A model generated the notes under the pieces. It was not told the DNA's origin, ran no database searches, and was given only the letters and a program-made list of their open reading frames with translations. A program made the translations under genes and the position numbers. A DNA stretch of 64,000 nucleotides from Eledone cirrhosa (lineage: Eukaryota), in assembly GCA_964016885.1 (NCBI GenBank), contig OZ024745.1:32116001-32180000 (forward strand). The letters run 5' to 3'. Each line of letters starts with the position of its first letter. The stretch's first letter is position 1. Shown piece after piece: positions 35,564-37,295 of this stretch.

Positions 35564-36019
35564 GTATTTAACTGCTCGGAAGAGCCCCTTTTCCTGGAGC
35601 TTAATTATTGTAAACGACAGAGTTTATTCTCAAAATATAATATAATATATATATATATATGTATATATATATATATATGTATATATATATATATGTATAT
35701 ATATATATACAGATATATGTATATGTATATATAGATATATGTATATATATATATATATATATGTATATATATATATGTATATATATATATATATATGTAT
35801 ATATATATATATATATATATGTATATATATATATGTATATGCAAAGGTTTTATTTAAAATCGTTGGGTTACAACAAGTAAATATTTTATAACTGATATAA
35901 AGCACTCGACAAGTTTTGGGAGTAGATATACGATATTAAACTACCAAGCCAGCCTCCTACCTTAATGGTCGCTATATTTATGGTACGTCAAAATTATTTA
36001 TAAAACTGGTTATATATTG

Positions 36020-36085
36020 TATTTTATCTGACGAAGGCATGCCATATTTTTAATATGGTATCCCTGAAATATGTATAATGAAATA
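36020..36085 (+). ncRNA. Type I hammerhead ribozyme, copy 1
   Basis: TATTTTAT-CTGACGA-AGGcATGCCATATT(ttt)AATATGGTATcCCT-GAAA-TA(tg)T-ATA/ATGAAATA; 8-bp stem I, 13-bp stem II, canonical core, predicted cut after 36077. Confidence 0.8.
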
Positions 36086-37100
36086 AATATGGTTTTATAA
36101 ATATAGTTTCCATTTGTTTAATATCGTATATATATATATATATATATATATATATATATATATATATATATATATGTATATATATATATGTGTATATATA
36201 TATATGTATATATATATATGTATATATATATATGTGTATATATATATATGTATATATATATATATGTATATATATATATATGTATATATATATATATATG
36301 TATATATATATATATGTATATATATATATGTATATATATATGTATATATATATATGTATATATATATATATATATGTATATATATATATATGTATATATA
36401 TATATGTATATATATATATATATGTATATATATATATATATGTATATATATATATATGTATATATATATGTATATATATATATATATGTATATATATATA
36501 TATATGTATATATATATATGTATATATATATATATGTATATATATATATATATATATATGTATATATATATATATATATATATATATATATATGTATATA
36601 TATATATATGTATATATATATATATATGTATATATATATATATGTATATATATATATGTATATATATATATATATGTATATATATATATATATATGTATA
36701 TATATATAAATATATATATATATATATAAATATATATATATGTATATATATATATATATATATGTATATATATATATATATATGTATATATATATATATA
36801 TATATATATGTATATATATATATATGTATATATATGTATATATATATATATGTATATATATATATATATATATATATATATATATATATATATATGTATA
36901 TATATATGTATATATATATATATATATGTATATATATATATGTATATATGTATATGCAAAGGTTTTATTTAAAATTGTTGGGTTACAACAAGTAAATATT
37001 TTATAACTGATATAAAGCACTCGACAAGTTTTTGGAGTATATTTAATGGTCGCTTATAATATGGTACGTCAAAATTATTTATAAAACTGTTTATATATTG

Positions 37101-37166
37101 TATTTTATCTGACGAAGGCATGCCATATTTTTAATATGGTATCCCTGAAATATGTATAATGAAATA
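37101..37166 (+). ncRNA. Type I hammerhead ribozyme, copy 2
   Basis: Identical to 36020-36085; predicted cut after 37158. Confidence 0.8.
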
Positions 37167-37295
37167 AATATGGTTTCATAAATATAGTTTCCATTTGTTT
37201 AATATCGTATATATGTATATATATATATTTGTATTAGAAAGTGAGGTTTTTTTTACAAAATGAAAAATAACCGAGGTGTCCTACACGAGTGGAAG

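Follow-up and report, generated by a model that had tools for sequence, protein, structure and literature searches.

The locus described here is probably a truncated insertion of the pseudo-LTR (pLTR) of a Penelope-like element (PLE) in TA-rich DNA, the hammerhead block of which was doubled locally, and a probability of roughly two in three is assigned to this reading. The block was likely doubled on the spot between two TA tracts, and the TA stretch is most likely a landing site and not the cargo of a new circular RNA. As a whole, the locus is a real feature, most likely of a known kind, i.e., one more abundant hammerhead-bearing PLE family and not a new system. Its features are collected in Table 1, with positions counted in the window, which is the whole 64-kb stretch of DNA analysed.

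Table 1. Positions of the features of the hammerhead locus in the window
Feature	Position	Strand	Remarks
Left fold-back palindrome	35482..35567		Arms of 43 nt (98%; perfect over 36 bp); probable insertion junction on the 5' side; fold z -13.7
Unique segment X	35525..35640	+	From palindrome centre to array 1; 39-codon open frame without relatives
G-interrupted TA array 1	35635..35840	+	About 206 bp
Unit 1	35841..36128	+	288 bp; includes 34-bp segment 35928-35961
Type I hammerhead 1	36020..36085	+	Predicted cut after 36077; caps an imperfect rod that extends over about 35995-36103
G-interrupted TA array 2	36127..36955	+	829 bp; pure TA at start, end like array 1
Unit 2	36956..37209	+	254 bp; deletion variant of unit 1
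Type I hammerhead 2	37101..37166	+	Identical to hammerhead 1; predicted cut after 37158
Short TA tract	37208..37228	+	Between unit 2 and segment B
Segment B	37229..37295	+	Repeat-family sequence; ATG at 37260, 12 codons to AAG/TATA boundary
50-bp extension	37296..37345	+	Continues the B frame; likely PLE 'tail'
Inverted copy of the extension	37347..37396	-	100% complementary, joined to array 3; fold z -19.8
G-interrupted TA array 3	37393..37730	+	

The two units lie in the same orientation and differ by 6 substitutions at 253 aligned positions (2.4%), by two 1-bp indels and by the 34-bp deletion in unit 2. This alignment agrees with the initial annotation, in which two direct copies with identical 66-nt hammerheads, differing flanks and an indel of ~35 bp had been described. 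A stretch of 86 nt is without differences between the units (36010-36095 = 37091-37176). The hammerhead cores consist of CUGACGA at 36028 and 37109 and of GAAA at 36066 and 37147, and cleavage is predicted after an AUA triplet at two sites spaced 1081 nt apart, exactly where the cuts had been placed before. Stem I has 8 bp and is prolonged as a plain AU-rich rod, while stem II has 13 bp with one C.C mismatch and is capped by a UUU loop. Stem III is AUAUGUAU in both hammerheads, self-complementary with two G.U pairs, and the earlier assignment to the dimer-dependent kind of type I hammerhead with a tiny palindromic stem III was borne out. PLE-type hammerheads have an extra base between positions 9 and 10.1 and a G10.1-C11.1 pair; here helix II is closed by an A-U pair, unless A37116 is the extra base before G37117-C37145, in which case U37146 is extra too. 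Three other marks of PLE-type type I hammerheads are present, i.e., the conserved core CUGANGA...GAAA...UH, the topology of stems I and II and the short palindromic helix III.

A stem-checked type I descriptor gave three motifs in the window, namely the two tandem hammerheads and one at 21417 on the minus strand, against a mean of 0.02 and a maximum of 1 in 100 shuffles. No Rfam hammerhead family was matched at the locus, neither at the gathering score nor up to E 10, and the identification of the hammerheads therefore rests on the descriptor and on inspection. Rfam miRNA-family matches below the gathering score were rejected, as they corresponded to nothing but the TA arrays and palindromes. 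When contigs were scanned with a hammerhead pattern, viral ones yielded 8 loci and metagenome ones 9; these 17 all failed to continue into stem III and stem I, and they were taken as chance matches and not as relatives. Elsewhere in the window, a perfect palindrome with 19-bp arms lies at 9134-9177, and a CUGAUGA...GAAA motif in it (9152, minus strand) failed the stem-checked descriptor.

The palindromes 35482-35567 and 37296-37396 and the unique segments 35525-35640 and 37229-37345 were absent from the initial annotation. Only four perfect palindromes with arms of at least 18 bp in non-simple sequence occur in the window, and the two longest are those flanking the locus. Both locus ends run into TA-rich sequence, as seen when a target site duplication was examined. 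Judged from its sequence, segment B is likely the 3' end of a pLTR with the first codons of the PLE ORF. For the layout expected of a pLTR, the candidate parts are the ATG at 37260, 12 codons to the boundary at 37296 and a 50-bp extension in frame, for which no protein match was obtained. The 36-residue B frame gave three matches in the protein search, all of them repeat proteins scored by summed weak stretches, no match in the Atlas, and none with a profile of 52 RT+GIY-YIG proteins, the predicted starts of which lie inside the gene. Protein searches with the segment X frame were likewise without relatives, and the segment B pattern was found 0 times in genome contigs and 0 times in viral contigs. 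A candidate splice donor is located at 37239, and no RT or endonuclease ORF is present at the locus.

Most of these characters are described in papers on PLEs. PLE insertions have palindromes at inverted junctions, a pLTR with the first 12 ORF codons and an optional tail (Arkhipova et al. 2013, PMC3846280), and they show 5' truncation, inverted copies, a tail of 30-40 bp and a bias for (TA)n (Craig et al. 2021, PMC8557442). Their hammerheads have a long helix II, a short palindromic helix III and a high variability within genomes (Cervera and de la Pena 2014, PMC4209133), and hammerhead dimers of PLEs are the subject of Lunse et al. (as cited in PMC6765202). The locus resembles the pLTRs of PLEs with endonuclease (PMC4209133; PMC3846280; PMC8557442), in its type I hammerhead with such helices II and III, in its many variable dispersed copies, often 5'-truncated, in the junction palindromes and TA at the junctions, and probably also in the ATG with putative first codons at the repeat end followed by an optional tail. 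On the other hand, it differs from them in that RT and endonuclease are missing, only the hammerhead block is repeated in tandem with a junction inside a TA array, and the closing pair of helix II is A-U if the two bases mentioned above are not extra. Against the PLE reading, the tail of 50 bp exceeds the published 30-40 bp, and no sequence link leads from the B or X frames to a PLE ORF.

PLEs occur in other parts of the window. A second, unrelated hammerhead repeat lies on the minus strand at 21228-21970 between TA arrays, with the hammerhead core at 21417 (CUGAAGA, a 5-bp stem I and a stem III longer by one pair); CA repeats and a 71-bp tandem lie inside it. An ATG stands shortly before its AAG/TA end, and an inverted end copy (21872-21909) continues into a tail with an ATG frame; by analogy, this is the textbook layout of PLE inverted pLTRs. 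The C-terminal GIY-YIG end of a PLE is located at 26240-26509, directly behind a TA array (Pfam PF01541, E 3e-5). Its protein has three relatives, all GIY-YIG or RT+GIY-YIG proteins, and a search with the longest of them returned 1191 proteins; among the 120 best, those with a name come from bivalves or their symbiont assemblies. The remnant at 21228-21970 and the GIY-YIG end at 26240 indicate that PLEs beside TA arrays are present in the window. Between the GIY-YIG end and the next TA array (up to 27960) lie TG/TA microsatellites and, at about 27551-27590, a motif resembling a hammerhead, the core of which is altered to CUGACCA.

The window also includes long LINE open frames at 32506-35121 (+), 60736-63283 (-) and 48371-51493 (-). 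The first of these has RT and a PHD-like domain by Pfam and points toward the hammerhead locus, for which it could provide read-through RNA. Two LINE copies are 98% alike, which marks the LINE family as young. The tRNA-like heads of a SINE family were found at 45730-45787, 31977-32035 and about 3140-3200, one of them reaching the Rfam tRNA gathering score. The host is probably a mollusc; the tails of the SINEs may be of an octopus-like type. Minisatellites are located at 2148-2568 (59 bp, 7 copies, 98%), 43701-43971 (95 bp, 3 copies) and 18432-18668 (112 bp, 2 copies), and about 1 kb of strongly T-rich sequence with poly-T (30318-31339) lies between two TA arrays, unlike its surroundings.

Unit U and segment B form an abundant repeat family, which is present in two other organisms too. 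Sampled words of 36956-37345 were sought in public runs and were present in 13 runs with 10 organism labels from 9 studies, the word share being half or more in 3 of the 13 runs and under a fifth in 7. No RNA run was among the 18 runs listed, which says nothing about expression. For the region 36950-37349, four of 18 runs were aligned (X1, X4, X6 and X14), X7-X13 being left out for their small word shares, and solely contigs at least 85% alike were taken into the family alignment. Matching contigs numbered 5762 of 16,517,967 in X1, 20 of 13,709,327 in X4 and 78 of 8,254,286 in X6. The X14 run (raw Hi-C reads labelled organism B, 1938 million letters) gave 0 of 12,836,656 reads, which does not fit a very high copy number in organism B, with the restriction that this outcome does not count as a test. 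The summed depth of the 5' part of U and of B was up to 7.6e5 versus 1.6e6 in X1, 164 versus 492 in X4 and 419 versus 167 in X6, i.e., of the same order in all three, although summed depth is not a copy number. The U-B junction region (37202-37241) was excluded from the alignment and no contig spans it; the linkage of U and B in other copies is therefore deduced from depth.

Among the loose ends listed (18 of 119), the start of the 34-bp segment (behind 37039) was present in 46 X1 and 3 X6 contigs. Since other family copies contain this start, unit 2 is the deletion variant. TA stands before the 5' end of the unit (36951) in X4 and X6, and directly before 37296 in 31 X1 contigs, by which 37296 is recognized as a recurring boundary. 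The same loose ends include one X6 contig with a short A run and TA behind 37342, without a fold-back, and two X4 contigs that start at 37055 and 37060 behind other sequence and are truncated copies. The two joints listed are both internal deletions, one lacking the whole hammerhead. An X1 contig (depth 13.5) skips 127 bases (37039-37167) and with them the entire hammerhead, and family copies without the ribozyme therefore exist. On the 400 bp, 16 variable places were listed (in 17 rows), 12 of which fall inside the 66-nt hammerhead and none in the core; in X1, seven places vary in at least 5% of the depth. The X1 variants at 37107, 37122 and 37161 retain pairs, those at 37135 and 37139 disrupt pairs in outer stem II, and G37154A, in about half of the depth (50%), turns stem III into a perfect palindrome. 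In the CG of the core, the C (position 7, which is free) varies in 67% of the X1 depth, and G8 is without a listed change. The variation of the hammerhead has the pattern of a motif kept by active source copies, with the invariance of the core by itself not being significant (P 0.26).

At six places, the two units agree in a letter from which 32-67% of the X1 depth differs. The probability of this is 0.0095 for independent unlinked draws, a value which linkage within a subfamily would raise and for which X1 possibly represents another species. The six shared letters variable in the family argue for a local duplication. Array 2 begins as pure TA like the downstream tract and finishes like array 1, which places the junction inside TA. 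Read most simply, the unit pair goes back to a single insertion that was later doubled locally with such a junction. Selection was rejected as an explanation of the identical hammerheads: with the units 2.4% divergent, 66 nt would stay unchanged with a probability of 0.21, and no selection is needed.

The motifs, the two fold-back ends and the repeat family were observed directly, and from them we infer the following course of insertion and doubling. A PLE reverse transcriptase/GIY-YIG protein encoded elsewhere would have copied the 3' part of an RNA from an autonomous element or from a short derivative of one into TA-rich DNA. An early stop with self-priming or template switching could have produced the fold-backs at both junctions and the tail. 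Unit U, with TA on both sides, may then have been doubled by unequal exchange or by a template jump between the tracts; array 2 would be a hybrid of these tracts, which slippage then lengthened, as in the remaining arrays of the window. After the doubling, the copies would have diverged by 2.4% and by the 34-bp deletion. In the parent element, the hammerhead would trim tandem precursor RNA as a dimer and at a low rate. A read-through transcript at the locus could form the dimer as well, but any UA-rich product of 1081 nt would arise rarely, as a by-product and not as the mobile form.

It is unlikely that the TA array and the unit together are the monomer of a non-autonomous retrozyme, a 1081-nt RNA with 77% UA being freed by double self-cleavage, circularised and retrotransposed by PLE proteins and thereby spreading the arrays. 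In a recent preprint (Li, Clavereau and Pollet 2026, 10.64898/2026.07.22.740005), two complete hammerheads in tandem serve as the working criterion for active non-LTR retrozymes, and the kinship with retrozymes proposed in the initial annotation was judged right as far as the relation of PLEs and retrozymes is concerned. A G-interrupted TA array does stand before each unit, as had been claimed, both ending in tgtatatgcaaagg (35834 and 36949), and TA before the 5' end of the unit recurs in X4 and X6, as mentioned above. Nevertheless, arrays 1 and 2 are not copies of each other, since they differ in length (206 vs 829 bp) and in the pattern of interruptions; in array 2, there are 46 G but not a single C. 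At 1081 nt, the period also exceeds the sizes given in published accounts, i.e., 150-450 bp (Cervera and de la Pena 2020, PMC7229834) and 51-972 bp (10.64898/2026.07.22.740005), and the claimed monomer of array and unit was not sustained. With two units, each bearing a complete hammerhead, and no ORF, the locus would pass as a retrozyme dimer if the term is taken loosely. It departs from retrozymes in monomer size and in the lack of a direct head-to-tail form, and it is not filed as one.

The distribution of TA arrays in the window bears on the same question. TA-type segments of at least 80 bp number 24 and total 11,694 bp, and just two of them stand before a unit. A G spacing of 14-18 nt was found in 28 of 45 intervals in array 2; in the unit-free array at 27962-30321, it was found in 81 of 157. 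The same spacing throughout these arrays, most of which are without a unit, speaks against the claim that the TA array is the cargo of the unit. On the other side, TA tracts abut the breaks of LINE copies where the reference copy is without TA (4 of 10 non-self matches: 63283, 13392, 24484 and 45675), which implies that arrays arise at new places by some route and may arrive from elsewhere, but none of these four tracts carries a unit. Further TA tracts at LINE-copy breaks were seen at 32506 and 21118, some of the tracts being long and G-interrupted. Multi-kilobase TA arrays extend over 21966-30321, 31339-31968 and 55023-60345; their interruptions are G or C every 14-18 nt on one strand only, with strand switching between arrays, and some include local higher-order repeats.

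Sequence signals and predicted folding also count against a retrozyme of this kind. The general A and B box consensus was used in the pattern scan, and neither box matched; together with the lack of a tRNA gene in 34000-39000, this led to the rejection of a Pol III-transcribed, SINE-like retrozyme. Five runs of at least four T lie in unit 1. A Pol II transcript could end before the array at the AATAAA four bases behind each cut, a weak argument in AT-rich DNA. In favour of the retrozyme are the perfect stem III palindrome in about half of the X1 depth and the predicted fold of the array, a single hairpin with 99% of its bases paired, by which the hammerheads would come to lie close to each other. 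Against it, the stem III duplex is predicted at only -2.2 kcal/mol, and a fold with both cores active is predicted to make up about 1e-6 of the ensemble. When 35841-37209 was folded in a nearest-neighbour model, the active monomers lay 7.0 and 6.7 kcal/mol above the ensemble, and in the dimer one active core lay 6.0 or 7.9 and both cores 8.5 kcal/mol above it. Since this model is without tertiary contacts, the energies say just that the dimer gains little. In published work, 8 of 9 Xenopus dimers tested were without cleavage (10.64898/2026.07.22.740005), and the minimal hammerheads of PLEs show poor cleavage even in dimeric form (PMC4209133). Moreover, no 'go back' joint was present among the joints listed, which leave out those at repeats. 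For the 1081-nt, mostly UA RNA, the arithmetic holds, i.e., a fragment of 77% UA would result if both sites were cut, and its role as a retrozyme with UA cargo is weakly supported.

A more detailed model along these lines is quite improbable. A PLE-derived, protein-free element would include about 1 kb of G-interrupted TA in its monomer, and the UA hairpin would dock the two hammerheads; double cleavage would give a 1081-nt near-double-stranded RNA circle, which the telomerase-related PLE RT might copy, or stutter on as a UA template, into new sites. Such copying would explain the G-interrupted TA arrays at breaks in young LINE copies without TA. No account of a microsatellite-filled hammerhead circle or of this repeat family was met in the mostly openly accessible literature searched. 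PLE consensus sequences and hammerhead families, which might include the present family, are listed in the supplements of Craig et al. and Cervera.

An origin of the tandem in the assembly, by a false joining of haplotypes or of two family loci through their TA arrays, also has a low probability. Thousands of family variants flanked by long TA arrays are hard to assemble, the stretch is not covered from end to end by any aligned contig, and the junction of the unit 2 deletion is not crossed by any of the 24 pieces listed. The 6 substitutions, the 34-bp deletion and the six shared letters are nevertheless as expected of an old local duplication, and the window is without N. Helentron- and MITE-like elements with an internal microsatellite are known, and 35482-37396, with its near-perfect hairpins at both ends, could resemble a hairpin-ended non-autonomous DNA element that captured the hammerhead block, but this is very improbable, as the two hairpins are unrelated in sequence and leave no terminal inverted repeats, the X6 copy described above ends without a fold-back, and the hammerhead, the ATG and the tail suit a PLE end.

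With the truncated pLTR insertion as the preferred reading, the locus can be compared with animal non-LTR retrozymes (PMC7229834; 10.64898/2026.07.22.740005), which are non-coding, AT-rich tandem units with one type I hammerhead each, as is the case here. They are thought to have derived from PLE pLTRs by local tandem amplification, and by analogy the dimer at the locus looks like the first step of such an amplification. Unlike in those retrozymes, there are two units only, the period includes 829 nt of microsatellite and the units are not directly head to tail; PLE-type ends are attached, and the circle is merely hypothetical here. The satellite hammerheads of newt and axolotl (PMC7229834) also depend on a second hammerhead because their palindromic helix III is weak, but they retain tertiary contacts between loops 1 and 2 and units of 330-350 bp, in contrast to the AU-rich rod of stem I and the UUU loop 2 at the end of 13 bp at the locus.

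As most likely read, the locus illustrates the first step from a pLTR to a retrozyme-like tandem, by local doubling between TA tracts, and is a usable example for the route proposed in the preprint (10.64898/2026.07.22.740005). If a 1.1-kb circle exists, the microsatellite hairpin would be a scaffold for the ribozyme dimer, and retroelements would directly give rise to TA arrays throughout the genome.
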